From Lachnospiraceae bacterium (GTDB taxonomy: Bacteria > Bacillota_I > Bacilli_A > RFN20 > CAG-826): a stretch of 64,000 nt of DNA. The translations under genes and the position numbers were made by a program. Below the pieces are notes generated by a model. That model searched no databases, had not been told where the DNA came from, and saw only the letters and a program-made list of their open reading frames with translations. This document shows positions 1 to 60,418 of this stretch, one piece after another. The DNA is taken from NCBI GenBank assembly GCA_963657245.1, contig CAVKLJ010000003.1, positions 65,219-129,218 of the forward strand. The letters run 5' to 3'. The first letter of the stretch is position 1. Each line of letters starts with the position of its first letter.

Positions 1-1
1 T

Positions 2-1777
2 CTTGCTGCTTGTGGAGAAGAGACAAACAGCAGTTCATCATCCTCGTCTTCGTCTTCTTCATCTAGCTCATCCGCTACTGAAGTCATCACTGAAGCTGAT
101 TTAGCAAAAGGAAAAACAACTTACACAAGCAGCGACGGATCCCAATTGAACTTAACCCGTTCGGGAATCTACAAAGCCTCTGGCGCCCCACATGTCAATT
201 CCCATCCAGACAATGGAGTTAAACAAAAATTGCTTGTTGCACCTATTTCCTTCAAATCAGACACGACAGACGAAAACTACATCGAGCCAACCGATGAGTT
301 ATTAACAAAGATTGATAAGACATTCACTGCAACAGATGACGAATTAAAGACTCTTTCCGGAGCTTCAATCACATCAGTTCAATCTTTCTATAACCAATCT
401 TCATTCGGCAAAGGCGCATTTGATGTTGTCGTTTTGCCATGCTGGATTGAATATGATGGCACAGCAAAAGAGTTCCAAAGTGCTTCTGGCGGACAAGCTG
501 GCGTTTCAATGTCCACTTACGTTCGTAGCTGGTATCTTGCCGAATATGAAAAAGCAGATCACGGTCAGTTAGGAAAAGACTGGGAATACACATGGTCCGA
601 TTTTGACACAGATGATGATGGCTATATTGATTTGATCTGGCAAGTCTATGCTTATAAATATTCATCAAATGACACTTCTTTCTGGTGGGCATATGTCACA
701 TATACGGGAAATCAAGCAAATCTTGCTAAGCCAAATATTATGACTCTTGCTTGGGCTTCAACCCAATTCATGAGCGATTACAATGGCTATGATCCACATA
801 CATTCATCCACGAAACTGGTCACACACTCGGTATCAACGACTTCTATGACTACACCAACACCTGGAAACCAATGGGTTCCATTGATTACATGGATCAAAA
901 CCTTGGCGATCACTCCGCTTATACGAAGTTCTGCTACGGATGGATTAACCCATACGTTCTCAAAGAAAGTGATTTAACAGGTGGCAAAACGGCCGAAATC
1001 ACCCTTCGTGCAGGAACAACTTCCGGCGACGCATTAGTCCTTGCCTCTCCTAACTACAACGGAACAGCATTTGACGAATATTTAATGGTCGAACTTATGG
1101 GTCCATATGGCCTTGCAGAACGTGATTATAAGTCTGGTTATTCCAGCACATCAGGATATACAGTTCCAGGCATTAGAATCACCCACGTTGATGCAAGAAT
1201 GTATCAAAACGACCATGATGCAGTCGTCACCGATCCAGATTCTCTCGGAGCAAACGGCGGAGATAACCGCACATGCAACACTTATGGTGGACGTATGGGC
1301 GTCAAATACGATTCTGATTTCTGGCCAAAAGAAAAAGAAAATAGCAGTATACCAACAAGCATCAGCAAAGATCATCCAAATGCAAAATTAGGATCAATTG
1401 GCACATTAAACGGTTCAAAGAATAGCAACGTCAACGCTTACTTCACAGAAGTTTCCTTAATGGAATCAACAATCAGTGATGAAAACTGGACAAACTCAGC
1501 TCACTACAACGCTTCAAGCAGCATAACCCTCTTTAAGAAGAATTCCCGTTTCTACCTCAAAGACACAAAAGGTAATGCTTCTGCATGGGCAAAGAGTTAT
1601 ATGCCAAGCGGTTCCAATCTCTGGAATAAGGCGAAAACAACCCTTGGTTGGAAAGGCAACGACGTCTATTATGAAATCGACGAGACTGCAACATGCAACT
1701 TCAGCATGAGAGTCACCGATATCACGACAGATGACACATACGGCGCAATTGCCAAACTCACAATTACGTTAAACTAA
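2..1777 (+). CDS. Surface lipoprotein with M6 (InhA-like) zinc metalloprotease domain; 5' end lies outside the window
   Basis: The reading frame is open from the window edge. Nt 2 onward reads LAAC-GEETN followed by a 16-residue Ser run, i.e. a lipobox Cys plus Ser linker. It carries the HEXXH motif FIHETGHTLGINDFYDY typical of M6 peptidases. The track ORF 146..1777 is only the TTG-initiated part. Confidence 0.75.
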   Translation, partial: LAACGEETNSSSSSSSSSSSSSSSATEVITEADLAKGKTTYTSSDGSQLNLTRSGIYKASGAPHVNSHPDNGVKQKLLVAPISFKSDTTDENYIEPTDELLTKIDKTFTATDDELKTLSGASITSVQSFYNQSSFGKGAFDVVVLPCWIEYDGTAKEFQSASGGQAGVSMSTYVRSWYLAEYEKADHGQLGKDWEYTWSDFDTDDDGYIDLIWQVYAYKYSSNDTSFWWAYVTYTGNQANLAKPNIMTLAWASTQFMSDYNGYDPHTFIHETGHTLGINDFYDYTNTWKPMGSIDYMDQNLGDHSAYTKFCYGWINPYVLKESDLTGGKTAEITLRAGTTSGDALVLASPNYNGTAFDEYLMVELMGPYGLAERDYKSGYSSTSGYTVPGIRITHVDARMYQNDHDAVVTDPDSLGANGGDNRTCNTYGGRMGVKYDSDFWPKEKENSSIPTSISKDHPNAKLGSIGTLNGSKNSNVNAYFTEVSLMESTISDENWTNSAHYNASSSITLFKKNSRFYLKDTKGNASAWAKSYMPSGSNLWNKAKTTLGWKGNDVYYEIDETATCNFSMRVTDITTDDTYGAIAKLTITLN

Positions 1778-1790
1778 CAGAATGGATAGA

Positions 1791-1820
1791 GCTGTTAAGG
1801 GAAATCCTTAGCAGCTTTTT
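1791..1820 (+). terminator. Rho-independent terminator after the metalloprotease gene
   Basis: GCTGTTAAGG-gaaat-CCTTAGCAGC stem (10 bp, one G.U pair) followed by TTTTT. Confidence 0.7.
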
Positions 1821-1939
1821 CATTTATGCTCATTTTTCAATTTAACAATCAATTTGATAATTCTATACCGGTAAAAATATACCTGTGTTAAACTTTCATA
1901 GTAATCGTCAACGACGATAAATATTAGAGAGGTAAAAGA

Positions 1940-3085
1940 ATGTCTTACAGATTCATGTTAAACGAGACTTCCTATCATGGACATGGCGCAATTGAAAACA
2001 TCGTCCCTGAAATTGAAGCAAGAGGATTTAAGAAAGCACTTGTCTGCTCCGATCCTGATTTAGTCAAATTCGGAGTTACAGCAAAAGTCACATCGTTATT
2101 AGATAAAGCTGGTGTCGCCTACACTTTATATGACAACATCAAACCAAATCCAACAATTGAAAACGTTACAAGCGGTGTTAAGGCTTGTAAAGAAGCGGGT
2201 GCTGATTTCATCATTGCTATCGGTGGAGGATCTAGCATGGATACCTCTAAGGCAATCGGTATCATCATGACAAACCCAGAATTTGAGGATGTCAGAAGCC
2301 TTGAAGGAGTTGCTCCAACAAAGAAACCATGCTTACCAATCATCGCTGTTTCCACAACCGCTGGCACAGCAGCTGAAGTTACAATCAACTACGTCATCAC
2401 TGATGTTGAAAGAAAGAGAAAATTCGTTTGTGTTGATGCTCACGATATGCCAATCATTGCCGTTGTTGACCCAGATATGATGTCCTCAATGCCAAAAGGC
2501 TTAACTGCCGCTACAGGCATGGATGCCCTTACCCACGCTATCGAAGGCTATATCACTCGTGGCGCTTGGACAATGTCCGATATGTTCCACATCAAAGCCA
2601 TCGAAATTATTGGCAAGAGCCTTAGAGATGCCGTTAAAAACACCCCAGAAGGCCGTGAAGGAATGGCTTTAGGACAATATATCGCCGGTATGGGTTTCTC
2701 CAATGTCGGTTTAGGTATTGACCACGCTATGGCACATACATTATCTGCATATTACGATGTCCCACACGGCGTTGCATGTGCTATGCTTCTTCCAATCGCC
2801 ATGGAATTCAATGCTGATGTCACTGGCACTAAATACAAAGATATTGCCATTGCTTTAGGTGTTAAAGGCGTAGAAGAAATGAGCCAAGAAGAATATCGCG
2901 CTGCAGCAATTAACGCCGTTAAACAACTCTCTGTCGATGTTGGCATCCCAACAAAATGCGAGAAAATCGTTGCAAGTGATTTAGATTCCCTTGCCACAGA
3001 TGCCCTTCATGATGCATGCTACCCAGGCAATCCAAAGGAAGCAACCCACGAAGAAGTCGTCGCTCTCTTTAAGAAATTAATGTAA
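1940..3085 (+). CDS. fucO: Lactaldehyde reductase / 1,2-propanediol oxidoreductase (group III Fe-dependent alcohol dehydrogenase)
   Basis: 381 aa, colinear with E. coli FucO as I recall it. Shared blocks include RFMLNETSYHGHGAI, GGGSSMDTSKAIG, TTAGTAAEVTINYVITD..KRKFVCVD, THAIEGYITRGAW and GNPKEAT. RBS GAGAGGTAAAAGA precedes the ATG. Confidence 0.85.
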   Translation: MSYRFMLNETSYHGHGAIENIVPEIEARGFKKALVCSDPDLVKFGVTAKVTSLLDKAGVAYTLYDNIKPNPTIENVTSGVKACKEAGADFIIAIGGGSSMDTSKAIGIIMTNPEFEDVRSLEGVAPTKKPCLPIIAVSTTAGTAAEVTINYVITDVERKRKFVCVDAHDMPIIAVVDPDMMSSMPKGLTAATGMDALTHAIEGYITRGAWTMSDMFHIKAIEIIGKSLRDAVKNTPEGREGMALGQYIAGMGFSNVGLGIDHAMAHTLSAYYDVPHGVACAMLLPIAMEFNADVTGTKYKDIAIALGVKGVEEMSQEEYRAAAINAVKQLSVDVGIPTKCEKIVASDLDSLATDALHDACYPGNPKEATHEEVVALFKKLM

Positions 3086-3093
3086 GCATTAGA

Positions 3094-3124
3094 AAAGGCT
3101 CCAGAGTTTGTTCTGGAGCTTTTC
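3094..3124. terminator. Bidirectional terminator between convergent fucO and the PIN-like gene
   Basis: GCTCCAGA-gtttgt-TCTGGAGC hairpin, flanked by an A-run upstream and a T-run downstream. Confidence 0.75.
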
Positions 3125-3126
3125 AT

Positions 3127-4674
3127 TTACTTTGATTTTGCTTTTTCAAGCCTCTCTAAGTCTGAGAGTTTCAATTGGAAAGATTTAAGATCTTTGGCAT
3201 CAAGTTTCTTTAATCTTTCTTTTTGTTTCTTGATTTCTAGAAGGGATTTCTCTTTTGGATAATTAGGGTTATTCAAGTTCGCGTTAAGGATACGGTCTGC
3301 AGCAATTGCTTCATCGAGTAAGCTGTTATTTTTAATTATTGCAACTTTTTCCTCTTTACGGACAGGTTTCTTCTTTGGTTCCCCTACCACAAGGATAATT
3401 CCTTCAGGTATGGCACTAGAAGATCCACCAGAGGTTACGCCTTTAACCTTGACGACTTTGATCTTTTTCTTCGAAAGAGATTCATCGATCAAAGGCTTTT
3501 CCTTCCCTTTTATTGGCGTTGCTTTTTTCTCTTTTGGAGATGTTGATGGTTTCTTGCTCTTTGTCTCCTTTGAAGAATTCCTAGAACAAGAGACTGAATA
3601 TTCATTTCCTTTGATGAAGGAATAAACGATTCCTCCTTTGGAATAGGTGAAATCACCTTTCTTTGAAGAGAGAAGATCAACATTCACCAAATCTTCCATC
3701 GTAAGGTTTAACTCACCATGGACCTCAGGAACGTAAGGAACGCTGTTATCTCTAACAATCGAATGATAATTCAAAGCAAGACGTTTTAAGGCCTCGCTTG
3801 CCTTCTTTCCTTTGGTGATGATTGTTTGAGGCTGGATTTCTGGTGTTTCCTTCTTATTCTCTTTTGCAGGCTTCTTAGAGCTTAGAAGTTCTGCCTTTTT
3901 CTTAAGAAGGTCTTCTTTTTGGAAATGAAGCTTTAAGTTTGTTAAGGATTCTTTTCCAATCTTGTTGATACGAAGAATCTGATCATCGATATCTCTGATT
4001 TTGTTTTTGAGTTTGTATTTTTGATCCAAAAGACTCTTAGCTAATTTCGAATCTTCTTGAATCAAAGTTCTTTGCGCCTTGGTTAGAGGCGTGACTTTGT
4101 TGTCTTTTTCTACCTTCTGAAAAGACGAAGCGTCATGTTTCTTGTTAAAAGGCTTTTCGCTATTTTCGCCAGGATTCTTTTCTAATTCTGATTGTTGATT
4201 CAAGCGATATACACTTAGATATCTCCCTTTTTGTGAATCAAGCTTATTCAATTTCAATAAATCCGTTGTTAAGGTTTTATCTTGGGTGATAACAAGGATT
4301 TTGTTATGAATCCGTAAGCTAGAAACTTTTGTGAATATGGCGTTATCCGCGAAGGAATCGCCATCACATTTAGTAATTGTTAATGTCTTAGAACGCCACT
4401 TATCGTGTTTGATTATCTTTAAAGCTCTTGTCGCGGCAATCTTACTACTGATACGTTCTTTGTCTTTTTCTTTTGAATGTTTCTTTAATTCTTCTAAACA
4501 TTCGCCAAGAACAATTACTTGTAGTTCATCTCTCCAATATTCTTTTGAGGATGTTAAGTGATCCATGAATAATGGGAATGAGTCTTCCATCAAGGAACAT
4601 GTGTCCACGAACACATAGTCGTAATCATTTAAGAATTTCGCTAAGTTCGAGGATTTTAATTCCTCTTGATACAT
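3127..4674 (-). CDS. PIN-like nuclease domain protein with a long Lys/Ser-rich, coiled-coil-like C-terminal region
   Basis: 515 aa. The N-terminal ~150 aa has spaced acidic residues in PIN-like contexts: FVDTCS, LGECLEEL, SFADNAI and VITQDKT. The remainder is low-complexity K/E/S-rich. I recognised no other family. Confidence 0.45.
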   Translation of the reverse strand: MYQEELKSSNLAKFLNDYDYVFVDTCSLMEDSFPLFMDHLTSSKEYWRDELQVIVLGECLEELKKHSKEKDKERISSKIAATRALKIIKHDKWRSKTLTITKCDGDSFADNAIFTKVSSLRIHNKILVITQDKTLTTDLLKLNKLDSQKGRYLSVYRLNQQSELEKNPGENSEKPFNKKHDASSFQKVEKDNKVTPLTKAQRTLIQEDSKLAKSLLDQKYKLKNKIRDIDDQILRINKIGKESLTNLKLHFQKEDLLKKKAELLSSKKPAKENKKETPEIQPQTIITKGKKASEALKRLALNYHSIVRDNSVPYVPEVHGELNLTMEDLVNVDLLSSKKGDFTYSKGGIVYSFIKGNEYSVSCSRNSSKETKSKKPSTSPKEKKATPIKGKEKPLIDESLSKKKIKVVKVKGVTSGGSSSAIPEGIILVVGEPKKKPVRKEEKVAIIKNNSLLDEAIAADRILNANLNNPNYPKEKSLLEIKKQKERLKKLDAKDLKSFQLKLSDLERLEKAKSK

Positions 4675-4804
4675 ATTTGTTGGTTATTTTTTCCTCCTTT
4701 ACGACTTATTTTAACTTAGAAATCAGGATTTGCAAAAAACAATTAGCAAGATATTTCCTTTTGCAGTAAGCGGGGAGAAAATCAAAAACTCGAATAGAGG
4801 AAAT

Positions 4805-4901
4805 CATCTTATGTCCAGTTACACTTGTTTCTTATGTCCTACTTATGTCATCATGCGGACATAAGATGAAAAAACATCGATAATTACTAATGTTTATCTT
4901 A
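4805..4901. repeat. 97-bp module, copy A of two, containing CTTATGTC words; lies upstream of the PIN-like gene and downstream of the AlbA_2 gene
   Basis: Near-identical to 6368..6465: a 63-nt perfect block, then a 1-nt indel plus 1 mismatch, then a 26-nt perfect block. CTTATGTC occurs at 4808, 4831 and 4842, with inverted GACATAAG at 4858. Confidence 0.9.
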
Positions 4902-4927
4902 ATCGCTTTAAGCTATAAACATCAAAT

Positions 4928-6316
4928 CTATTTCTTTGTGATGTATTTTTGATTCTTTGAATGTTTCTTTGCTGTTGTTAGCAACAATCCTGAATCAAGC
5001 AAGGGTTTTAAGACTCTCTTTGAAAAGTTGCTAGTGCTCGAATAGCCGATATAATTTTGGATTTCTTCTCTGCTTCTTGCGACCCCATCGCAAAAACTTA
5101 AAATCTTTGTATCGTAGTTATCAACGGTTTTTAGAACCGCTTCTTCGGTATTCAGCAAATCGTAGAGAGTTATCATGAAAAAATCTGAAGTATTGTACAA
5201 AGTAGGCTCTTTGGCGTTTAAGTTCTCATAAATGTTATATATCTTTCTCATTCCACTGCCACTTTTTTCCATCAAACCTATGACACTAAAACAATTGCAT
5301 ATTACCTTGTTTCTTCTAACGGACGGAATAGAATCAAATTTATATTCATCTGGTTCCTTGTCTAGAAGCCAAGAGCCAGGAGAGCGAATTTCTAACCTGT
5401 CTTTATAAATATCGACATCTATTTGAGTTCCATATATCGAATAATCTCTATGAGCCAAAGCATTAACGACGCTTTCTCTTAAAGCTTTTTCTGGATATGA
5501 ATATGTATCTAATCTCGATCCATCATCCATCTTGATAAAACCGCTACGAGAATTACGTTTTATAAAGGCCATTATGTTCTCGAAAACTTCGCCTAAGCAT
5601 CCTTTAAATTCTTTCTTATCGATTGCTTCATCAACCCCACGGTTAAATCCGTTCCACAATCTGCAAACAGCCAAAGTATCATCTGAATTGTAATTATCAG
5701 CAAACATCCCTAAGCCTTCTGTAATTCTTCCGTCCTGGCTTATTATTTCCTCATTTATCAACATTTTGATAGATGGTTCTTGATTGTCTATACGATACAT
5801 GCGTGCTAGTTTGTTAAATGAAATAAAGTTCTTCTTTTCGTATTGCTCGTTTAAAATTTGGCCATCTATGCCGTATTTTCTCTTGCTCATTTTTAAAATT
5901 TGATTAATACTTGCCGGCAACGTGGCTCCGTTTTCTCTTATGTATACTTTCTCGTTAAAATCCCCGGCTTTATAAATGACCATTTCATTCAAATAATCAA
6001 CAAAAACGGATAATACATTATTGCCATTGTGGCATTTGATTAGGTCAAACTTGACAGTAACGTGTGGAAAAATATATCTATTTATAGTTAACAAGATTAG
6101 ATTCTTTGTTTGGTCGATTTCTTTGTTGTTTAAGCCTTTGGCATACCCATCATTTGTAACGCCAACAAGCAAATATCCACCTGACGTATTTGCAAACCCG
6201 ACAATTGTTTTTGCCCATCTTTCTATTTTTTCTTTATCATCATCCAATGCTAGTTTGAATTCATAATTTTGGTTCTCTAAATCATCTGCCGGAATTAGTT
6301 CACTTATTTTTTCCAT
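4928..6316 (-). CDS. AlbA_2 (Schlafen-like) plus HATPase_c_4 putative DNA-binding ATPase/transcriptional regulator, paralog 1 of 3
   Basis: 462 aa. N-terminal motifs are ENQNYEFK and GFANTSGGYLLVGV. The central motif is ESVVNALAHRDYSIYGTQIDVDIYKDRLEIRSPG. The C-terminal part is wHTH-like. Paralogous to 23878..25329 and 27357..28799. Confidence 0.75.
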   Translation of the reverse strand: MEKISELIPADDLENQNYEFKLALDDDKEKIERWAKTIVGFANTSGGYLLVGVTNDGYAKGLNNKEIDQTKNLILLTINRYIFPHVTVKFDLIKCHNGNNVLSVFVDYLNEMVIYKAGDFNEKVYIRENGATLPASINQILKMSKRKYGIDGQILNEQYEKKNFISFNKLARMYRIDNQEPSIKMLINEEIISQDGRITEGLGMFADNYNSDDTLAVCRLWNGFNRGVDEAIDKKEFKGCLGEVFENIMAFIKRNSRSGFIKMDDGSRLDTYSYPEKALRESVVNALAHRDYSIYGTQIDVDIYKDRLEIRSPGSWLLDKEPDEYKFDSIPSVRRNKVICNCFSVIGLMEKSGSGMRKIYNIYENLNAKEPTLYNTSDFFMITLYDLLNTEEAVLKTVDNYDTKILSFCDGVARSREEIQNYIGYSSTSNFSKRVLKPLLDSGLLLTTAKKHSKNQKYITKK

Positions 6317-6367
6317 ATATTTTTCCTTCCTCTATGTTATTCTACTTACTTAATTTCAAAACATCAA

Positions 6368-6465
6368 CATCTTATGTCCAGTTACACTTGTTTCTTATGT
6401 CCTACTTATGTCATCATGCGGACATAAGATAAAGAAAACATCGATAATTACTAATGTTTATCTTA
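6368..6465. repeat. 98-bp module, copy B, immediately upstream of AlbA_2 paralog 1
   Basis: See 4805..4901. CTTATGTC occurs at 6371, 6394, 6405 and 6462, with inverted GACATAAG at 6421. CTTATGTC-atcatgcg-GACATAAG forms an 8-bp inverted repeat. Confidence 0.9.
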
Positions 6466-6588
6466 TGTCATCTTGTTAAAACACGTTAATCACACATGGT
6501 GAACAATGGGCACTCTCTTATAATCGCAAACAATGAAAATGACTATCTATTTCTTTTTTTGGAGACAAACGTTTAAAATATCTTAACG

Positions 6589-7218
6589 ATGAAAGATGTT
6601 GCTAAAAACGTTTCACATAATTTATCAACTCTAAGAAAAGCTAGAGGTCTAACACAAGGACAATTAGCAGAAAAGTTTTCTTATTCAGATAAATCGATCT
6701 CTAAATGGGAAACTGGCGATGGTTTGCCAGATATAAGCGTTTTAGCTGAATTGGCAGAATTTTATGGTGTCACATTAGATTATCTAATTAGTGAGCAAAC
6801 CGATGAAACATTGAAAAAAGACGGTAAAAATGACCCAAAAATCATAAAGAGAAACAAAATAATCGTCGTTGCTTTAGGCGTTGTCTTTATCTGGACTATT
6901 GCCGCGGTAATATTTGCCGCACTTATGCTAGCAAACATTCAATCTTGGAATCCTTGGCTAATCTTCCTTTGGGCAATACCTGCTTCATTCTTGGTTTTAA
7001 CGTATTTTGCCAAAAAATGGAATCGGAGATTTGATCTTCTAATTCACGTTCTTTGTTTCTTCTGGAGCACGGCCTTAGCAAGTTATATAGAACTTGGAAT
7101 GGATACAAATATTGGTTGGGGGCTATGGTTTATCTGGTTAACTCCAATACCTGCGACAATTGGTGCAATCTTCCTATATAGATACATTGCAGGAAAAGAC
7201 GATACGATTTTCTTCTAA
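6589..7218 (+). CDS. Membrane-anchored XRE-family HTH regulator
   Basis: The N-terminus LRKARGLTQGQLAEKFSYSDKSISKWETG...LAEFYGVTLDYLI matches HTH_3. It is followed by about four hydrophobic helices. Confidence 0.75.
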   Translation: MKDVAKNVSHNLSTLRKARGLTQGQLAEKFSYSDKSISKWETGDGLPDISVLAELAEFYGVTLDYLISEQTDETLKKDGKNDPKIIKRNKIIVVALGVVFIWTIAAVIFAALMLANIQSWNPWLIFLWAIPASFLVLTYFAKKWNRRFDLLIHVLCFFWSTALASYIELGMDTNIGWGLWFIWLTPIPATIGAIFLYRYIAGKDDTIFF

Positions 7219-7233
7219 TCATCTTTTATAAGC

Positions 7234-7265
7234 CGCTTTCCTTGTAAGAAAGCGTTTATTTTTTT
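7234..7265 (+). terminator. Rho-independent terminator
   Basis: CGCTTTC-cttgtaa-GAAAGCG stem followed by TTTATTTTTTT. Confidence 0.7.
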
Positions 7266-7297
7266 ACAATATCAAATAGTCAAAAGGAAGAAGATTT

Positions 7298-7972
7298 ATG
7301 GATGAAATTCGCGTTATAAAAGTAAAGCAAAGTGTATTTGCAAACAATAATTCCCGTGCTGAGGAAGTCAAAAAGAAACTCAAGGAAAAGAACGTCTATC
7401 TTGTTAACCTTATGTCCTCGCCAGGATCAGGAAAGACAACGTTCCTTGTTAATTTAATCAATCGTTTGAAGAATGATTTACGTATTGGTGTTATCGAAGC
7501 GGATATGGATGCCGTGGTCGATGCAGAGACAATCTCAAAAAACACTGGAGTTAAATCAATCCAAATTCACACCTCTGGCGAATGCCATCTTGATGCAAAA
7601 ATGGTTGATGATGCCCTCACTGGCTTTGGAATTGAAGATTTAGACTTAGTTTTCCTTGAGAATATCGGAAATCTTGTTTGCCCAGCCGAATTTAACACTG
7701 GAGCCACATCTTCTTTTGAACTCTTATCTATCCCCGAAGGAGATGACAAACCTCTTAAATACCCATTGATGTTCACGGTCGCAGATGTCGTCATCTTCAC
7801 AAAGCTTGATGCAATATCAGTATTTGATTTTGACATTCAAAAAGCCGAAGAACATATCCTAAAACTCAACCCAAATTCCAAATTCTTCCCTGTTTCTGCT
7901 AAAACTGGCGAAGGTATGGATAAGATTGCTGAATATCTTTTAAAGCAAGTCAAAGAGTACCAAGCTAAATAA
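7298..7972 (+). CDS. hypB: Nickel-incorporation GTPase HypB
   Basis: 224 aa. P-loop SSPGSGKTTF, the ENIGNLVCPAEF motif and TKLD are all characteristic of HypB/UreG-type G3E GTPases. Confidence 0.85.
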   Translation: MDEIRVIKVKQSVFANNNSRAEEVKKKLKEKNVYLVNLMSSPGSGKTTFLVNLINRLKNDLRIGVIEADMDAVVDAETISKNTGVKSIQIHTSGECHLDAKMVDDALTGFGIEDLDLVFLENIGNLVCPAEFNTGATSSFELLSIPEGDDKPLKYPLMFTVADVVIFTKLDAISVFDFDIQKAEEHILKLNPNSKFFPVSAKTGEGMDKIAEYLLKQVKEYQAK

Positions 7973-7973
7973 T

Positions 7974-8318
7974 ATGCACGAAATGAGTTATGTTTTGATG
8001 AGCATTGAGGAGCTCAATAACGTCATCAAAGAAAACAACGTCAAAGAGCTTATATCGGTAACCTTAGATATCGGAGAGTCTTCTGGCGTTGAAGAAAGCT
8101 ATTTCCGAGTTTGCTGGGATGCGGCAATAAAAGACACACCTTTAAAAAATACGAGGCTCAAAGTAAACATGTTGCCTTCCGAAGGAAGATGTTTATCTTG
8201 TGGAACAATCTTTAATCTCAAAGATAATAATTACACTTGCCCTAGTTGCAAGAGCAACAATGCGTATACGCCAATAAATGGTAAAGACATCGAAATAGTC
8301 GAAATAGAAGCGATATAA
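7974..8318 (+). CDS. hypA: Nickel metallochaperone HypA
   Basis: 114 aa. It has the MHEMS N-terminus and two CxxC pairs (CLSCG and CPSC), and starts 1 nt after the hypB stop. Confidence 0.8.
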   Translation: MHEMSYVLMSIEELNNVIKENNVKELISVTLDIGESSGVEESYFRVCWDAAIKDTPLKNTRLKVNMLPSEGRCLSCGTIFNLKDNNYTCPSCKSNNAYTPINGKDIEIVEIEAI

Positions 8319-8477
8319 AAGCCTTAAACCCATCAAACCTCAAGTCTAATCTTCATATTTTCGTTCTAAGTTTGATTTAACATAAATGAAATCGATTATT
8401 TAAAAACGAATGTCTTATCAATTATTTGGTTATTTTGCTCCAGTAACTTGCCTATAATTACAGTTAGTGGAGCAAAT

Positions 8478-9076
8478 ATGATAAGTACAACAAAAATATT
8501 GTTAGAAAAATACAACGCATTTGGCGATCCATTTAAACAAATAAAAAGGTTGGTTTCAAATGGCGAACTAACACCAATCATTAAAGGCCTATATGAAACA
8601 AATCGTAATGTTGATGGATATCTTTTGGCTGGAGCAATTATGGCCCATCATACCTATCGTTCGACTTTGCTCTATCCTATTACGGCTTAATCCCCTAAAG
8701 AGTTTATACATACACGTCCGCTACATGTTTAAAAAGAAAGTCTAAAGAATATATAACCAAATTCGGTAACTTTACATACCAAGACATTCCTTCTTCTGCA
8801 TTTTCATTGGGGGTTAAAATCAAAGAAGAAGACGGGTACACATATCTCATCGCAACACCAGAAAAGGCTTTATGTGACAAGTTATATTCGCTTAAGCCTG
8901 TTTCTAATCAACAAGAGCTAAAAACATTGTTGTTTGATGATTTGAGAATAGACGAAATTGAATTTAACAAATTAAATATCGAAGATATACGCATTTTAAC
9001 TGAGACTTATGGCTCAAAAAACATATCTCTTTTATACAAAATCATGAGGAAAAATCGAAAACAAAATTTGAAATAG
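8478..9076 (+). pseudogene. Decayed type IV TA antitoxin AbiEi-family gene
   Basis: Track ORFs 8448..8690 and 8807..9076 are the two halves of one AbiEi-like protein (...GELTPIIKGLYETN..., ...GVKIKEEDGYTYLIATPEKALCDKLY). A +1 shift near 8640 restores GPSYLSFDFALSYYGLIP. An in-frame TAA then sits where family members have Glu (IP*RVYTYTS). Confidence 0.7.
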
Positions 9077-9243
9077 ATGCAAATCCGCCACCATATGCGA
9101 CATTCGATTCTAAATACAGCTTAACCCCTACGCCATACGCATGCAGCTTATATGATATAAATTATTTTTGCCGAAAAAATAGCCTTGGTCTTATACCGTA
9201 ATTTGAAAGCAAGACTAAAACAATCGAAGTTTATAAACGATAA

Positions 9244-21890: not shown

Positions 21891-23618
21891 ATGATTAGTA
21901 ACACGATATTAGAAGCAACAACTGAGTCTCCGGTAATCCTTGTTTTATTAATGCTTGGCGGACTTGGCGCCCTTTTTGTTGGCATGAATATGTTGCAATC
22001 TTCGACTGAGAAACTTGCAACAAGTGGCTTAAAACGTCTTTTTGCTAAAACCGCTAAATCTAAATTAGCAGGCGTTGGTATCGGCACTTTGGTTACGATG
22101 ATCATGCAATCAAGTGGGGCAACTACAATCATGGTCGTTGGTTTTGTTAACGCTGGCGTTATGAGTTTAGCGCAAGCTGCAACCTACATCATGGGCGCGA
22201 ATATCGGAACAACAATCACCGCTCAAATTGTTGCGTTAGGTGGATTATCTTCCTCCGCTTTCCCTCTAACTGAAATCATCATCTCTTTAACTCTTATTGG
22301 CGTTATTATGCGTCTTATTTTCCATAAGAAGTTCCCTAAGGTTGCCTTTATTGGTGATATGATCACGGGTCTTGGCCTTCTTTTCTTAGGACTCGAGACA
22401 ATGACATCGAATATGCAAAGCATGTTCCTTTCTAATGAAGGATTAAAAAACGCTTTGATTTCCTTATCTAATCCATTCCTCTTACTACTTATTGGTATTG
22501 TTCTCACAGCAATCGCCCAATCATCAAGTGCGGTAACTTCTATCGTTTTAGCCTTAGCAATGGCTGGTGCAGTCATTGGCGGAAATGGCAATGGTGTCCT
22601 TTATTTGATCCTTGGTTCAAATATTGGTTCTTGTACGACAGCCCTTCTTTCAGCAATTGGTTCAACGGTTAACGGCAAAAGAGCTTCAATTATCCACTTA
22701 TTATTTAACGTCTTTGGCTCATTGATTTTCTTTATCATTCTTATTTGCTGGCCAAAAGCGATGGAAAGCACGTTTGCTAGATGGTTCCCAGATTCTCCTG
22801 CGACACAAATCGCAATGTTCCACACCTTCTTTAATGTTGTTGCCACGATTATTTTCTTACCACTAACAAAATTCTTAGTCATCTTAGCTGAAAAAATTGT
22901 TCCTGATAAAGGTAGGGATGTTGAATCCGATCTTCTTGATTCAAGATTTCTTTCTACCCCTGAACTTGCTTTATCACAAGCAGTTTCTTATTACCACATC
23001 ATGGCTAATTTGGCTTTGAACGACTTAAACATCGCTTTGAATGCCTTCTTAGATAAAAACGAAGGCAAGAAGGAAGAAATAGATCAATTAGAGAGCAAAG
23101 TTCTCCATATGTCTAAAGAGCTTTCTTCCTTTATCGTTCAAATTGCCTCAAAAGGCGTTAGTGAAGAATCCCAAAAGAGAATCTCTAGGATGCAACTTGA
23201 TATTGCTGATATCATCCGTTTCACAGAAGTCGCAGATAACATTACTGGATATACCCATCATGAAGTTAACGAAGACTTAACCTTCTCTCCTATCGTTATT
23301 TCCGATTTGAAAGATATGCAAATTAAAATCAACGATATGTTTAAAACGGTTGATGAAATCGTTGATAAGCAATCTCTTGAACGACTTGAGGAAGCAAGAA
23401 AGATGGAAGATGGAATTGATGAGAAACGTACATCAATGGTTCACGGACATCTTAAACGTTTAGAAGTTGGAGAATGCAAGCCTCAAAGCTCGAATGTCTT
23501 TATCAATCTTGTTGGTAACTTGGAACGTTGTGGTGACCACCTTAACTTTATTGCCGAACGTTCTTGTAATGATCTTCTTCCTAAGAACGAAGAAAATAAC
23601 ATCACATTGCATCCGTAG
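21891..23618 (+). CDS. Na+/phosphate cotransporter family protein with PhoU-like C-terminal domain
   Basis: 575 aa. It has duplicated Na_Pi_cotrans motifs (QSSGATTIMVVGFVNAG and QSSSAVTSIVLALA). The soluble helical C-terminus ends in the LERCGDHLNFIAE PhoU-like motif. Confidence 0.8.
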   Translation: MISNTILEATTESPVILVLLMLGGLGALFVGMNMLQSSTEKLATSGLKRLFAKTAKSKLAGVGIGTLVTMIMQSSGATTIMVVGFVNAGVMSLAQAATYIMGANIGTTITAQIVALGGLSSSAFPLTEIIISLTLIGVIMRLIFHKKFPKVAFIGDMITGLGLLFLGLETMTSNMQSMFLSNEGLKNALISLSNPFLLLLIGIVLTAIAQSSSAVTSIVLALAMAGAVIGGNGNGVLYLILGSNIGSCTTALLSAIGSTVNGKRASIIHLLFNVFGSLIFFIILICWPKAMESTFARWFPDSPATQIAMFHTFFNVVATIIFLPLTKFLVILAEKIVPDKGRDVESDLLDSRFLSTPELALSQAVSYYHIMANLALNDLNIALNAFLDKNEGKKEEIDQLESKVLHMSKELSSFIVQIASKGVSEESQKRISRMQLDIADIIRFTEVADNITGYTHHEVNEDLTFSPIVISDLKDMQIKINDMFKTVDEIVDKQSLERLEEARKMEDGIDEKRTSMVHGHLKRLEVGECKPQSSNVFINLVGNLERCGDHLNFIAERSCNDLLPKNEENNITLHP

Positions 23619-23623
23619 AGACT

Positions 23624-23675
23624 ACTTCTAGATCCTAGAAGTTTTCTAGAAGTGAACTAGAAGTTTTCTAGAAGT
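23624..23675. repeat. Word module 1: inverted ACTTCTAG followed by 4 x CTAGAAGT at 11-bp period
   Basis: ACTTCTAG is at 23624. CTAGAAGT occurs at 23635, 23646, 23657 and 23668. The module starts 6 nt after the upstream stop codon. Confidence 0.9.
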
Positions 23676-23769: not shown

Positions 23770-23821
23770 ACTTCTAGATCAGAGAAGTTTTCTAGAAGTA
23801 GTCTAGAAGTTTTCTAGAAGT
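23770..23821. repeat. Word module 2, homologous to 23624..23675
   Basis: ACTTCTAG is at 23770 and a degenerate AGAGAAGT at 23781. CTAGAAGT occurs at 23792, 23803 and 23814. It has the same 11-bp phasing and sits 146 bp from module 1. Confidence 0.9.
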
Positions 23822-23877: not shown

Positions 23878-25329
23878 ATGTTGCTTGATGAATTGATAAA
23901 AGATAAATTCTTTGAAACTAAAACTGCAGAATTTAAGAGCGAGCTTAACCCGGTTAAACCCCTAAGTTGGCTTAAAACAGTAGACGCGTTTGCAAACTGT
24001 GAAGGCGGAACAATCTACATAGGTGTAAATAATGAAACCTATGAGCTGATCGGTTTAAAAAGAGAAGGTGTGGATTTTCAAGTTCAAACTTTTATAAAAA
24101 CCGTTAAAGAACATTTTCAATCAATCCCAACATATTCCTTTAAATACACAAAATTTAAGAACGAAAACAACGAGGAACGTTTCTTATTAGAGATAAAGAT
24201 TGAAGAATCTAGAGCAAAGCCGATTGTTTTGACCTACGATGGCATACCATCGATATACGTTAGAGATGAGGGAAGAACATCTTCTGCGACAAGCGAGCAG
24301 ATAAGACAAATGGTTCTATCCACTTCTTCTATTGATTTCGATTGTATTGAAACCGATATTCCATATAACAAAGGCGACTTTAAGCTCCTTTTTGCTACAT
24401 TCAAAGAGAAACACAAAGGAGAAGAATTAACCGAAAAAATCCTTCGCTCGGAAAACTTCTACTCCGAAAAGGGTTTTCTTTATAAGGGCTCCTTACTATT
24501 CAAAGACGATTTCGTGGGTCAAGAAACAAAAACCGTCTGCATCAAGTGGAATGGCATAAACAAAGGTGACTCAACTTATCTAAATGAGCAGGAATTCAGC
24601 GGCAACATTCTTCAAAATATTGAATCTGTCATCGATTATATCGAGAAGAATTCTGACAGTGGTTTCCTTAAAGAAGACCGTGGCAGAAAAACGATATATT
24701 CCTATCCAAAACGCTCTCTTTTTGAAGGAATGATTAACGCTTATGCACATAAAGATTATTTTATCGCCAATTCAGAAATACACGTGAATCTATTCAAAGA
24801 TAGATTGGAGATAACCTCCCCCGGATCTTTAGTTAATGGAGAAACTTTTTATCGAAATGAAAACCTCATCGAAATTGATCCAGTAAGAAGAAACGATAAA
24901 ATATGCGCCATATTAAAGGTTCTTTTGCTTATGGAAAAGAATGGAACAGGGTTCTCGAAAATAGAAGATGATTATTCCGGTTTCGGGAAGAAATACGCCC
25001 CACTCATCACATCAAATAAGATGTCGTTCACATTGACCTTGCCAAACCTTCTTTCTCCTACAGGAATCATCAATGAAGATACGACTGACCTTCCTCTCTT
25101 CTATGAAAACAAAGGCGAAGAAAAGAAAAACGACAAAACCATTCTTTCATATTGTTATTACAGTCCAAAAACCTTGGAAGAAATCGCCAACACTCTTTCT
25201 GTCAAAGTTTCTTCCTACCTTAGAAATGACATCAAAAACAGATTGGTGAATAATGGTTTATTGCTTGAAGGCAAGAACAGAAACGCCATAACTTATAAAA
25301 CAAACACAGAACTAGTTAAACTAATCTAG
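23878..25329 (+). CDS. AlbA_2 plus HATPase_c_4 putative DNA-binding ATPase/regulator, paralog 2
   Basis: I prefer the start at ATG 23878 over the track's TTG 23821, because it has the RBS GAGGTGA and aligns with the paralog N-termini (MLLDELIK...). Motifs are TKTAEFK, AFANCEGGTIYIGV and EGMINAYAHKDYFIANSEIHVNLFKDRLEITSPG. Confidence 0.75.
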   Translation: MLLDELIKDKFFETKTAEFKSELNPVKPLSWLKTVDAFANCEGGTIYIGVNNETYELIGLKREGVDFQVQTFIKTVKEHFQSIPTYSFKYTKFKNENNEERFLLEIKIEESRAKPIVLTYDGIPSIYVRDEGRTSSATSEQIRQMVLSTSSIDFDCIETDIPYNKGDFKLLFATFKEKHKGEELTEKILRSENFYSEKGFLYKGSLLFKDDFVGQETKTVCIKWNGINKGDSTYLNEQEFSGNILQNIESVIDYIEKNSDSGFLKEDRGRKTIYSYPKRSLFEGMINAYAHKDYFIANSEIHVNLFKDRLEITSPGSLVNGETFYRNENLIEIDPVRRNDKICAILKVLLLMEKNGTGFSKIEDDYSGFGKKYAPLITSNKMSFTLTLPNLLSPTGIINEDTTDLPLFYENKGEEKKNDKTILSYCYYSPKTLEEIANTLSVKVSSYLRNDIKNRLVNNGLLLEGKNRNAITYKTNTELVKLI

Positions 25330-27290: not shown

Positions 27291-27330
27291 TTTGAACTAC
27301 TTCAAAGGTTGTTTGAAGTGCGTTTGAAGT
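27291..27330. repeat. TTTGAAGT-type words upstream of AlbA_2 paralog 3
   Basis: TTTGAACT is at 27291 and inverted ACTTCAAA at 27299. TTTGAAGT occurs at 27312 and 27323 (11 bp apart). The RBS AGGAGGA is at 27343. Confidence 0.8.
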
Positions 27331-28799: not shown

Positions 28800-28930
28800 T
28801 GGTTTTAAATTTCTAGATTTGTATAAATCGAACTCGATCCATCTATCAGCATTTATCAGAACTACATAAATGATAATGGGTGTTTTTGCTATAAGTTTAT
28901 TCTTAGTTTATTGCATTTAATAGTGTTTTT

Positions 28931-28981
28931 TGTCGATTATAGTCGACAGAAATGTATTGTTTTTGTAGAATATAGTCGACA
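28931..28981. repeat. TATAGTCGACA x2 (33 bp apart) plus TGTCGA-N6-TCGACA palindrome upstream of the DUF4143 ATPase gene
   Basis: The 11-mer occurs at 28938..28948 and 28971..28981. The second copy abuts the RBS AAAGGAGAA. Confidence 0.8.
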
Positions 28982-28993
28982 AAGGAGAAAACC

Positions 28994-30253
28994 ATGGACC
29001 ACGAAATTCTCAAGCAAATTATCTTTGAACAACATGAAGTTATTAAAAAAGCTCAGATAGTAACTAGAGATTACACTTTCGATAAAAACGCTAACTACGT
29101 TTTGATAGGTCTTAGGCGCTCAGGAAAATCAACGCTCCTATATAAACGTGTTAAAGATCTCATCGAAGAAGGTGTTGATTGGGAACAAATAATTTACATA
29201 AACTTTGACGATGAGCGTTTGCTTGGCTTTCAAGCAAATGATTTCGAGGACATATTATTGACTGCCGAAGAAATAACAAACGATAAGCATTATTTCTATT
29301 TTGACGAGATTCAAAATATCGATGGTTGGGAAAAATTTGCCATAAGAATGGCTAATGCCATGGAAAAAGTCGATATAACAGGAAGCAATGCGAAAATGCT
29401 TTCAAGGGAAGTCTCGGCAAAATTAGGCGGACGTTATCTTACGAAGATAATCCATTCCTATTCCTTCAGAGAATTTCTCCGTGCAAAATCAATAGACGAA
29501 AGCTCTTCGTATTCCCTTTCTGAACGCGCAACAGTAACAAACGCTCTCCAAGAATTCTACAAGTTTGGTGGATTTCCAGAATCAATCAATTCCATGGATA
29601 AGCGCGAATACGTTTCAAGCATATACGAAAAGATTCTTCTTGGTGATATCATCACTCGCAACTCCATCCGTGGAGAGAACGGCATGAGAATCCTGATAAA
29701 GAAAATATCCACCACCGTCTCACAAGATGTCTCATATACAAATCTTTATAATGCTTTGAAAACGATTGGTTTTTCTCTTTCAAAAGACACGATCATTGAT
29801 TATTGCTCATATGCCACTAAAAGTTTCCTCTTATTTGCTTTGAAAAACTATTATGCTTCCTTTGTTGATAAGGAAAGCAATTCGAAATATTACTTTTCGG
29901 ACAATGGTATTTTGAATCTCTTTTTGGCTAAAGATGACACCTCTCTTTTCGAGAATTTAGTCGCAATAGCCTTAAATCAAAAATACCAAGAAAAACTTTA
30001 TTATTTGAAAAGCAGCAAAACTAAGATAGACATTGATTTTTTTGTTGATGTGGAAAACATCGCAATTCAAACTTGCTATTCCATGGAGAGTCCTACAACT
30101 TTCGAAAGAGAAGTTGGACAACTTAAAAAACTCGACGAAACAGATCCTGGAAAATATAAACTCATCATCGTGACTATGAACGAAACCAAGACAATCCCTT
30201 TAGAAAATAACGAAATCAGAGTGGTCAAATTGCAGGATTTCCTTCTTTCGTAA
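28994..30253 (+). CDS. AAA_14 ATPase with C-terminal DUF4143 (PD-(D/E)xK-like) domain
   Basis: 419 aa. Walker A is GLRRSGKST and Walker B is FYFDEIQ. The size and layout are typical of the widespread 'ATP-binding protein/DUF4143' family. Confidence 0.7.
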   Translation: MDHEILKQIIFEQHEVIKKAQIVTRDYTFDKNANYVLIGLRRSGKSTLLYKRVKDLIEEGVDWEQIIYINFDDERLLGFQANDFEDILLTAEEITNDKHYFYFDEIQNIDGWEKFAIRMANAMEKVDITGSNAKMLSREVSAKLGGRYLTKIIHSYSFREFLRAKSIDESSSYSLSERATVTNALQEFYKFGGFPESINSMDKREYVSSIYEKILLGDIITRNSIRGENGMRILIKKISTTVSQDVSYTNLYNALKTIGFSLSKDTIIDYCSYATKSFLLFALKNYYASFVDKESNSKYYFSDNGILNLFLAKDDTSLFENLVAIALNQKYQEKLYYLKSSKTKIDIDFFVDVENIAIQTCYSMESPTTFEREVGQLKKLDETDPGKYKLIIVTMNETKTIPLENNEIRVVKLQDFLLS

Positions 30254-59310: not shown

Positions 59311-59367
59311 GTTCTAAAGAGTTCTAAATATTGAAAAAAGTTCTAAAATGTTCTAAAATGTTCTAAA
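59311..59367. repeat. Array of 5 x GTTCTAAA overlapping the promoter of 59381..60418
   Basis: Exact 8-mers start at 59311, 59321, 59340, 59350 and 59360, giving spacings of 10, 19, 10 and 10. The last copy abuts the RBS AAGGAGGG. Confidence 0.9.
59331..59359 (+). promoter_or_regulatory. Putative promoter of 59381..60418 (TTGAAA-N17-TAAAAT)
   Basis: The -35 lies in the 19-bp gap between words. The -10 is formed by the 3' end of the word at 59350. Confidence 0.5.
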
Positions 59368-59380
59368 AGGAGGGCATCCC

Positions 59381-60418
59381 ATGTCAAACCCATTTTCCAC
59401 CACATTCGGAATTGAACCAATCAATTTAATAAAAAGGACCGAAGAAACCGAAAAAATAATCTCTGATTTTTCAGATGAAAATATTGCAAATTACGTTTAT
59501 ATCATCACAGGATTAAGGGGAAGCGGTAAGACGGTTCTCCTATCAACCATAGCCAATAAGCTAAAAGACGATGATAATTGGGTCGTCGTCGATCCGGGAC
59601 CAAAAGATAATATTTTAGAAAACATTGCTTCGGAGATTTATGAAACGTGTAACCTAAAGAAACTATTTATCAAAGGAGAATTCTCATTTTCCTTTCAAGG
59701 CATAACTTTTTCTTTAAAGGGAAAGGAACCTACTACCACAGTCATGAGTCTTTTAAAGAAAATGATCGGCTACATCAACAAAAAGGGCAAAAGAGTTTTA
59801 ATAACAATTGATGAAGCTGATAACAGTGAACAAATGAAAATATTTATTGAAGCGTATCAAACACTCATCAGACAAGGCTATAAAGTTCTCTTGCTGATGA
59901 CTGGCTTATATGAAAATATTTCAAAACTTCAAGATGATAAATCTTTAACGTTTCTGTATAGGGCTCCAAAAATTGTTCTTGGCCCACTCAACATTTCTTC
60001 GATTTCTTTGGCCTATCAAAAATACTTAGAGGTCGATGAAGAAATTGGCCTAAAACTTGCTAAATTAACCCGTGGATACGCATACGCATATCAGGTTCTC
60101 GGTTATTTAATGTACACATACAAAACAAAAGACATAAACAAAGACATCCTTGGAGAATTCGATCAATATCTTGCTGATTATGTCTACGGCAAATTATTCT
60201 CTAAACTTAGCTCTAAAGAGCAAGACATAATCATCTCAATGCTTGATGACTCTCCGATAAAAAACGAAGCATTAAGAGAAAAGGTTGGCTGTGACATAAA
60301 GACTTTGAGCGTCTATCGGGACAGGCTTATAAAGAAAGGCATTCTTTATTCTCCTAAGTATGCATATTTGGATTATGCTTTGCCAAGATTCCGTTATTTC
60401 TTGCTAACTAAGATATAA
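59381..60418 (+). CDS. AAA/ORC-like ATPase with C-terminal wHTH, paralog 2 of 2
   Basis: 345 aa and colinear with 9244..10293. Shared blocks are NPFS..FG, GLRGSGKT, EFSFSFQG.TFS.KG, DD.SLTFLYRAPKI and LTRGYAYAYQ. Confidence 0.7.
   Translation: MSNPFSTTFGIEPINLIKRTEETEKIISDFSDENIANYVYIITGLRGSGKTVLLSTIANKLKDDDNWVVVDPGPKDNILENIASEIYETCNLKKLFIKGEFSFSFQGITFSLKGKEPTTTVMSLLKKMIGYINKKGKRVLITIDEADNSEQMKIFIEAYQTLIRQGYKVLLLMTGLYENISKLQDDKSLTFLYRAPKIVLGPLNISSISLAYQKYLEVDEEIGLKLAKLTRGYAYAYQVLGYLMYTYKTKDINKDILGEFDQYLADYVYGKLFSKLSSKEQDIIISMLDDSPIKNEALREKVGCDIKTLSVYRDRLIKKGILYSPKYAYLDYALPRFRYFLLTKI

Follow-up and report, generated by a model that had tools for sequence, protein, structure and literature searches.

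An accessory Schlafen (AlbA_2) gene between copies of a repeat module, and the word arrays upstream of its family

Prokaryotic Schlafen (pSlfn) proteins, widespread nucleases whose antiphage role was shown recently, carry the motif Ex4(E/D)xK, and the main text of a recent study (PMC13056530, Nat Microbiol 2026) places HisKinase (34%) and HisKinase-HTH (19%; HTH, helix-turn-helix) among their most frequent architectures. The regulation and the trigger of the HisKinase-HTH class have not yet been described, although it is one of the most frequent. Here we report on a gene of this type and the DNA around it in a 64,000-nucleotide (nt) stretch from a Lachnospiraceae bacterium (assembly GCA_963657245.1, contig CAVKLJ010000003.1, positions 65,219 to 129,218), hereafter called the window. 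The gene, referred to as AlbA_2, occupies positions 4928-6316 of the window on the minus strand and lies between two near-identical copies of a repeat module built of short words. We found that the gene and one module copy form an accessory cassette between conserved PIN-like and XRE genes, and that arrays of related words recur upstream of AlbA_2 homologs in unrelated contexts.

The assignment of the 462-amino-acid (aa) AlbA_2 protein is based on Pfam matches, a nuclease motif and a structure model. Pfam recognises SLFN_AlbA_2 (PF04326) at residues 14-134 (69.5 bits, cut-off 25.3) and HATPase_c_4 at residues 296-384 (78.6 bits, cut-off 26). The nuclease motif Ex4ExK is intact (E14-NQNY-E19-F-K21), and E14, E19 and K21 do not vary across an alignment of 18 sequences that reaches down to 30% identity. 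For the C-terminal HTH, Pfam gave sub-threshold matches only (Fic-like_C, E 0.002), as it did for the C-termini of the AlbA_2 paralogs (Sigma70_r4, HTH_20, HTH_5). AlphaFold2 modelled the last 85 residues as helix-helix-helix-strand-strand, with a pLDDT (model confidence score) of 83-91 across the domain. The top Foldseek matches of this model were the winged HTH domains of ArsR, SmtB, CzrA and HlyU and a Fic C-terminal domain (probability about 1.0, TM about 0.6, E-values 0.016 or weaker). By its modelled fold, the C-terminus (about residues 400-462) is an ArsR-like winged HTH, and the protein is a pSlfn of HisKinase-HTH architecture and a predicted nuclease. The gene is thus a further member of a known family. 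PADLOC and NCBIfam assigned it to no named system, and the only matches they returned, partial ones to pAgo and Aga, cover the Schlafen region; the sole match in a PDB sequence search was 3LMM, an uncharacterised protein.

The repeat module and the AlbA_2 cassette

The two module copies, at 4805-4901 (97 bp) and 6368-6465 (98 bp), are direct repeats. They share a perfect 63-nt block (4805-4867 and 6368-6430), part by one mismatch (G/A) and a 1-nt indel, and end in a second perfect block of 31 nt (4871-4901 and 6435-6465), with differences at 2 of 98 aligned positions. A sequence-only reading of the window had already reported this repeat with the same coordinates, first block, mismatch and indel; its last block, given there as 26 nt, is longer. 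Three CTTATGTC words stand at spacings of 23 and 11 in each copy, at 4808, 4831 and 4842 in copy 1 and at 6371, 6394 and 6405 in copy 2. The third forms the inverted repeat CTTATGTC-N8-GACATAAG with a GACATAAG word at 4858-4865 or 6421-6428, again as the sequence-only reading described. On its right side, the duplication ends inside a fifth word, CTTATGTC at 6462-6469 on the plus strand (CTTA|TGTC), which is single in L026, the closest of the comparison loci, which we designate by L numbers. The left border falls 3 nt before word 1.

The window contains 12 CTTATGTC words against 1.56 +/- 1.12 expected, a count that none of 100 shuffles reached, and 9 of the 12 are in or at the two copies. Moreover, a 39-nt core of the module has exactly two occurrences in the window, where 0 are expected. 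Both repeat junctions, from the module to AlbA_2 and from the module to the PIN-like gene, are present in Logan SRR13434591 and in the metagenome-assembled genome GCA_963588665.1, two short-read assemblies that break inside the repeat. Since independent short-read assemblies show both junctions, the repeat is no assembly artefact.

Copy 2 lies in the divergent intergenic region between AlbA_2 and the XRE gene and ends 51 nt upstream of the AlbA_2 ATG (6316). Copy 1 starts 26 nt past the AlbA_2 stop codon and lies 130 nt upstream of the ATG of the PIN-like gene (4674). A promoter-like site for AlbA_2, TTGATG-17-TAGAAT at 6339-6367 on the minus strand, was identified by consensus match only; it begins 3 nt after the last word, right at the module border. 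A scan of the whole window against Rfam returned no family, so the module is no known RNA. We also considered its palindrome as a terminator and rejected this, since no T-run follows the palindrome on either strand, and a terminator scan between the AlbA_2 and PIN-like genes predicted none. In addition, each copy contains a plus-strand promoter-like site, CGGACA-17/18-GATAAT (4856-4884 and 6419-6448), whose position relative to the palindrome matches the -10-like boxes behind the Cloacimonetes arrays described below. From copy 1, where GATAAT is at 4879-4884, this site would transcribe antisense into the 3' end of AlbA_2.

The state of the locus without the gene is seen in L026, which comes from another sample and has about 92% nucleotide identity to the window. 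There, the XRE and PIN-like genes are directly divergent, with a 350-bp spacer, one module and no AlbA_2. In blastn comparisons, window positions 1-4901 and 6368-8362 are collinear with L026, and both segments overlap the same 98 bp of it. The relatives compared number four (L026, L029/L030, L031 and L032), and all of these loci show the order HypA-HypB-XRE, divergent PIN-like, then Fe-ADH, without AlbA_2. The PIN-like protein is 86% identical to that of the window in L029/L030, 82% in L031 and 64% in L032. L026 has an intact module and L031 a decayed one; L029, L030 and L032 have none. In L031, one 11-bp unit is gone and the inverted word has degenerated to GAGACAAA.

The unique DNA between the two modules (4902-6367, minus strand) comprises 1,466 bp, namely a 26-nt trailer, the AlbA_2 gene and a 51-nt leader, and has no counterpart in L026, L029, L030, L031 or L032. 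The 48 extra bp of L031 were considered as a relic of the AlbA_2 leader and rejected, as their alignment score is inside the shuffle range. Together, AlbA_2 and one module copy make up a 1,563-bp accessory cassette between the conserved PIN-like and XRE genes, and since the four relatives do not have AlbA_2, the gene is lineage-specific at this site. The sequence-only reading had offered a cassette as one of two possibilities and proposed a comparison for presence and absence in relatives; L026, with its single module, no AlbA_2 and both window copies mapping to that module, bears this out. The presence of the module in L026 and L031 makes it older than the present duplication. Furthermore, the PIN-like and XRE genes are kept in relatives that lack the module, so neither gene needs it.

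Sequence differences between the modules give a relative age. Each window copy differs from L026 at 10 of 98 positions; one change per copy is private and eight are common to both. With just 2 of 98 positions differing between them, the copies must have been duplicated, or last homogenised, long after the split from L026, and both descend from resident sequence. Nothing significant marks the ends of the insert. Terminal inverted repeats at the ends of 4902-6367 scored 16 in alignment (shuffle mean 13.2, maximum 25), no microhomology was significant (a 9-bp AAACATCAA repeat is within the shuffle range), and no recombinase family was found by Pfam among the called genes of 1-15.8 kb, where one upstream gene has no Pfam match.

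The order module-gene-module was found at two further loci. In L036, 43 bp are identical on the two sides of the AlbA_2 homolog, and in L137 the repeat measures 90 bp at 97%, beginning 25 nt after the stop codon. L137 also has a 264-bp segment repeated on both sides of its AlbA_2 homolog (1071-1334 and 3028-3290). This segment consists of 162 bp at 99% followed by 109 bp at 87% and is the region that precedes the next ATPase gene. The resulting order, A-x-M-gene-M-A', is more than one simple duplication suffices to explain.

The cassette lies 2 kb from a variable island, across the XRE-HypB-HypA block. The island (8320-11830, between HypA and a ClpB-like gene) differs between the window, L026, L029, L031 and L032. 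The window has ATPase_2 and a Fic protein there (PADLOC candidate PDC-S04), L026 has AbiEii and ATPase_2, L029 has AbiEii and HipA_C, and L031 and L032 have no called gene.

Word arrays upstream of AlbA_2 genes

The closest homologs of AlbA_2, at about 70-75% identity, are found in unrelated contexts and carry the same or one-base-variant words, in gene orientation, 20-200 bp upstream. L033 has six TGACATAAGAT words, L136 has four GACATAAG words, and L035 has five words of the GACATAAG type (four exact, one with a mismatch), including a 23-mer identical to the window. Variant words precede the homologs of L036 (GACATATG) and L137 (GACATAGG). More distant homologs have other words. A tier of metagenome loci at 40% identity shows GYAATGTT-like words, and a tier at 30% identity shows TTTGAAGT, ATTGAAGT or AGTGAAGT. 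Three identity tiers of the protein correspond to three word classes.

We surveyed such arrays at 80 metagenome loci, comparing 76 upstream regions of homologs with 145 control upstream regions. The array test was passed by 32/76 homolog regions, by 10/145 controls and by 0/1,520 shuffles, and the ten passing controls include four AlbA_2 arrays and two ATPase_2 arrays of the window itself. Over 28 arrays, words were spaced by 10 bp 30 times, by 11 bp 61 times and by 12 bp 12 times, a sharp peak at one helical turn with a phasing of about 10.8 bp, and an inverted copy of the word was present in 15 of the 28. Words of the AlbA_2 family are nearly restricted to positions -20 to -200 in gene orientation, and the arrays of homologs extend to within 20-40 nt of the ATG. 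Arrays of this type stand beside unrelated neighbours in L033, L035, L036, L136, L137 and at least 20 metagenome loci. The window has only seven; six adjoin AlbA_2 or ATPase_2 genes and one stands alone.

The AlbA_2 paralogs of the window, which are 31% identical, show the same layout with other words, that is, one inverted word followed by tandem words at 11 bp. Upstream of paralog 2 (gene 23878-25329, plus strand), the array ACTTCTAG-N3-(CTAGAAGT N3)x4 occurs twice, at 23624-23675 and 23770-23821, in copies that are 90% identical and 146 bp apart. The array of L062 is likewise duplicated with other DNA between its copies. Upstream of paralog 3, the array ACTTCAAA-N5-TTTGAAGT-N3-TTTGAAGT (27299-27330, plus strand) ends 26 nt before the ATG at 27357. 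As a side observation, the 94 bp between the two paralog-2 copies contain a terminator-like hairpin (GTGACAtctTGTCAC, then a T-run) for a Na/Pi-cotransporter gene ending at 23618.

Judged by this distribution, the module is assigned to the AlbA_2 family and not to the PIN-like or XRE gene, as an array that moves with the gene and varies with the protein. The sequence-only reading had caught the repeat itself and missed both the divergent XRE gene and the wider array pattern of the family. A literature search with the terms AlbA_2, HATPase_c_4, PF04326, PF13749 and COG2865 returned no title or abstract pointing to upstream arrays. In the searchable literature we found no description of the array architecture, of its co-variation with the protein or of the repeat-bracketed cassette state.

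Other arrays were observed in the window and in the comparison loci. The solo array at 10558-10625 consists of six ACTTCAA(T/C) words with a period of 11-12 bp and has no AlbA_2 gene adjoining; on the reverse complement its word reads (A/G)TTGAAGT, the word class that the AlbA_2 subfamily at 30% identity uses. Two paralogs of ATPase_2 (PF01637), a different protein family, have word arrays of their own that reach the ribosome-binding site and resemble the AlbA_2 design. The first has six TTGTACTT words at 10318-10393 (gene 9244-10293, minus strand) and the second five GTTCTAAA words at 59311-59367 (gene 59381-60418, plus strand). The L026 contig breaks inside a AAGTACAA array. At 28927-28981, two copies of TTTTTGT(C/A)GA(T/A)TATAGTCGACA, 33 bp apart, precede an AAA_14 and DUF4143 gene (28994-30253), which is PADLOC candidate PDC-S01. 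In L137, a truncated ATPase fragment that has a Walker A motif (GARQVGKT) is preceded by five 33-bp tandem units (496-665).

Among 185,579 species representatives, the pattern CTTATGTC-N3-CTTATGTC-N8-GACATAAG was found in only three Cloacimonetes genomes (Ca. Syntrophosphaera thermopropionivorans W5, ADurb.Bin211 and UBA3541; accessions NZ_SMOG01, MWCN01 and DFOM01), at 22 loci (L004-L025). These loci have 3-7 or more tandem CTTATGTCCAG units, then CTTATGTCC-N6-GGACATAAG, followed after about 18 nt by a -10-like box. The flanks of the arrays are unique, with housekeeping neighbours such as glycogen phosphorylase, ComEC, EF-P, cmk and nadE, and many arrays are at contig ends. The sole AlbA_2-like gene in the 22 stretches encodes a 386-aa homolog of 26% identity; about 470 bp separate its end from the L024 array downstream. 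We rejected these loci as an orthologous context for the window, since tblastx and blastn of the window, which represents an uncultured Bacillota or 'Mollicutes' lineage, show no relationship, and rejected their arrays as AlbA_2-linked in view of the housekeeping neighbours and the single 26% match. Phage DNA was also rejected as a carrier of the arrays: when scanned for GACATAAG-N3-GACATAAG, viral contigs gave 17 matches, mostly in the coding sequence of one phage protein by coincidence.

Function of the array and alternative explanations

The best explanation as a whole, to which we give a probability of roughly 70%, is that the module is a cis element of the Schlafen family that would serve autoregulation, within an accessory cassette. 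It is an array of 8-bp words (GACATAAG in gene orientation), one to two helical turns apart and one of them inverted, directly upstream of the putative promoter. The winged HTH of AlbA_2 would bind the words, with several protomers on one face of the helix, and would thereby autoregulate the AlbA_2 gene. Repression is the likelier direction and would hold a potentially toxic nuclease low. Autoregulation through the array is the likeliest function. The near-identical copies would go back to the resident module, recently duplicated or gene-converted in connection with gain or turnover of the cassette, and recombination between them would delete AlbA_2 and leave a solo module. The module-gene-module order in L036 and L137, the duplicated arrays at paralog 2 and L062 and the solo array at 10558-10625 suggest that the arrays in general are recombination-prone, a solo array being what is left once copies recombine and the gene is lost.

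Several observations weigh against this explanation. Under the test used, 44/76 homolog upstream regions have no clear array. The co-variation of word and protein is inseparable from common descent of the gene and its upstream region, and we infer autoregulation only from position and this co-variation. The word architecture also occurs at the 22 Cloacimonetes loci by housekeeping genes, which makes another binder possible. The solo module of L026 and the decayed one of L031 are awkward for a story in which the array arrived with the gene; they require that a cassette stood there earlier, that gene conversion took place or that integration was targeted to the array. Finally, there are no terminal inverted repeats, no nearby recombinase and no significant microhomology that would point to the source of the near-identical copies.

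One alternative extends the autoregulation reading, and we regard it as possible, at a good deal less than even odds: the array would double as a recombination site, the gene with one array would be excised as a circle, and solo arrays would be footprints and landing pads. Such a system would resemble integron cassettes without a dedicated integrase, with recombination driven by RecA or set off where replication stalls at arrays bound by protein. Consistent with this idea are three independent occurrences of module-gene-module, in the window, L036 and L137, whose word variants differ, as well as the solo module at exactly the occupied site in L026, the AlbA_2-type solo array at 10558-10625 with no gene beside it and the duplication of arrays around other DNA at paralog 2 and L062. 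The patchy family agrees with it too, its closest homologs being 72-75% identical in unrelated contexts and many homologs being found only on gene-sized contigs that break in repeats. However, no circular form was seen, no identical gene was found at two sites, and no recombinase was detected among the neighbouring genes surveyed above. Any duplication at all is present in just 4 of about 28 arrays, and RecA events are rare over 97 bp of homology. Since both window copies share eight differences from L026, an incoming foreign array is excluded; with both derived from resident sequence, only a donor of the same lineage fits. A broader version, on which we would place slightly less weight still, sees Schlafen-HTH genes and arrays as a self-contained cassette system in which the array is both operator and recombination site. 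Genes would come and go by recombination between arrays, with solo arrays left behind as footprints or landing pads, and the tightly bound protein might itself promote this, for example by stalling replication at the array. The dispersed Cloacimonetes CTTATGTCCAG arrays could then be the same kind of site, as a genome-wide regulon or a field of landing pads.

Three further explanations were considered, two of which involve the genes beside the cassette. The PIN-like gene (3127-4674, minus strand) lies outside the cassette, next to the XRE gene in all relatives, and encodes 515 aa, a PIN domain at the N-terminus followed by a long Lys-rich tail. The sequence-only reading had named it PIN-like, and structure prediction agrees, with a pLDDT of 93.7 for the N-terminal model and top Foldseek matches to the PIN domains of SMG6/EST1A, Utp24 and AF0591 (E from 2e-5). 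Residues D24, E62, D110 and D132 are invariant, and the N-terminal domain alone reaches 22.2 bits against PIN_4 (cut-off 21.9), which 12 of 20 relatives also match. The protein has no Pfam family of its own, no PDB sequence match and no named or defence-system match in PADLOC and NCBIfam. Its family shows the motifs IDTCS, ELKKH, NFADN and LITQDKxLAxDxLxLN, followed by long variable Lys-rich tails. A promoter-like site for this gene, TTGCAA-16-TAAAAT (4708-4735, minus strand), lies in a stretch conserved in L026 and L031 and begins 73 bp beyond the last word of copy 1. The XRE-type HTH_3 gene (6589-7218, plus strand, 209 aa) diverges from the cassette, and all relatives keep it in synteny with HypB and HypA. 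The C-terminal half of its protein is hydrophobic and was judged membrane-spanning by eye, not by a topology tool.

The other possibility offered by the sequence-only reading was that AlbA_2 controls itself and the PIN-like gene through one operator, as a dedicated regulator-effector or toxin-antitoxin-like pair. The same module before both genes, the confirmed PIN fold and possible read-through, with no terminator predicted between the genes, speak for it. Nevertheless, we consider such a pair highly improbable. The PIN-like and XRE genes occur without AlbA_2 in 4/4 relatives, AlbA_2 and PIN-like are never neighbours outside the window (L033, L035, L036, L137 and all other AlbA_2 loci examined have no PIN-like neighbour), and the module is absent as well in two relatives. 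The PIN-like protein has homologs in plenty (361 word-indexed; 399 representative for the N-terminal domain), with fixed synteny in the four relatives and no PADLOC match to a defence system. What stands of the earlier proposal is that the words look like AlbA_2's own sites, since they recur upstream of its homologs and the protein is predicted to end in a winged HTH. The sites that copy 1 places upstream of the PIN-like promoter look like a by-product of the duplication, because the gene runs without a module in relatives; copy 1 could, but need not, link PIN-like expression to AlbA_2.

Autoregulation from divergent intergenic regions is common among XRE HTH_3 proteins, and the module could instead be the operator of the XRE repressor, controlling that gene and the PIN-like gene, with AlbA_2 landing there by chance and copying it. 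This reading accounts for L026, the ancestral arrangement, where the module lies midway between the two divergent genes, and for the plus-strand CGGACA-17/18-GATAAT site inside the module, which points to the XRE gene. It is nonetheless unlikely, since XRE and PIN-like are kept in L029, L030 and L032 without the module and in L031 with a decayed palindrome. At the loci examined, the same words precede AlbA_2 homologs without such an XRE neighbour, and the AlbA_2 paralogs of the window have arrays of the same layout with no XRE partner. Equally as remote as the AlbA_2-PIN pair is a transposition-type insertion of the 1,466 bp with staggered cuts at the module ends, which would make the second copy a 97-bp target-site duplication. 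In its favour, both near-identical copies derive from resident sequence, and the outermost words mark the borders, one of which is 3 nt before word 1 and the other inside word 5. Known target duplications, however, are typically 2-15 bp and CRISPR repeats about 30 bp, and 97 bp is far outside this range. There are no terminal inverted repeats, transposase or integrase, the Schlafen gene being the only open reading frame of 4902-6367, and the flanking copies in L036 and L137 are only partly co-extensive. After the event, the array sits at the family's normal distance upstream of the gene, so homology-guided placement fits better than random insertion.

On the autoregulation reading, the subfamily-specific array is a concrete candidate operator for HisKinase-HTH Schlafen genes, and the arrays are a ready data set for a winged-helix recognition code relating word to recognition helix, in the alignment columns near SSTSNFSKR. 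They also explain why short-read assemblies fragment at these Schlafen genes. For single-gene defence systems, operator-bracketed presence and absence would be a simple route of gain and loss, a route supported by the solo copy in a sister genome together with two further independent cases. For the 64-kb window, the idea of a toxin-like AlbA_2-PIN pair is removed.

Comparison with known systems

The closest described systems are the pSlfn proteins of HisKinase-HTH architecture (PMC13056530, main text), with which AlbA_2 shares PF04326 with Ex4ExK, the fusion to HATPase_c_4 and the C-terminal HTH. The window gene is likewise accessory, patchy and near defence-candidate genes. The defence that the main text of PMC13056530 details is that of RorSlfn5, which has a C-terminal Ig-like sensor and is not of the HisKinase-HTH type, and term searches found neither upstream word arrays nor autoregulation nor flanking repeats mentioned in that main text.

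The array can also be compared with defence or toxin genes that contain an HTH and regulate themselves, and with classical operators of helically phased repeats such as those of ArsR/SmtB-type repressors, with which it shares the predicted ArsR-like winged HTH, repeated sites with an inverted pair at the gene's own promoter and a phasing of about 10.8 bp. In contrast to their one or two palindromes, arrays of the AlbA_2 family have up to nine head-to-tail words. Moreover, the HTH is here a domain of the effector itself and not a separate small repressor, and its binding is predicted. Iteron plasmid Rep genes are alike in having direct repeats and an inverted copy adjoining a winged-helix gene, with a variant-specific word. 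Unlike iterons of 17-22 bp at about 22 bp, however, the words described here are 8-10 bp at an 11-bp period; AlbA_2 has no Rep domain, and its context is chromosomal, with three AlbA_2 paralogs in one window.

With regard to integron cassettes, the module differs in consisting of direct words and one 8-bp inverted pair, with no cassette array and no integrase among the neighbouring genes examined. As in integron cassettes and solo long terminal repeats (solo-LTR), a single gene stands between near-identical direct repeats in the window and one repeat is found in L026, and this pattern recurs in L036 and L137.

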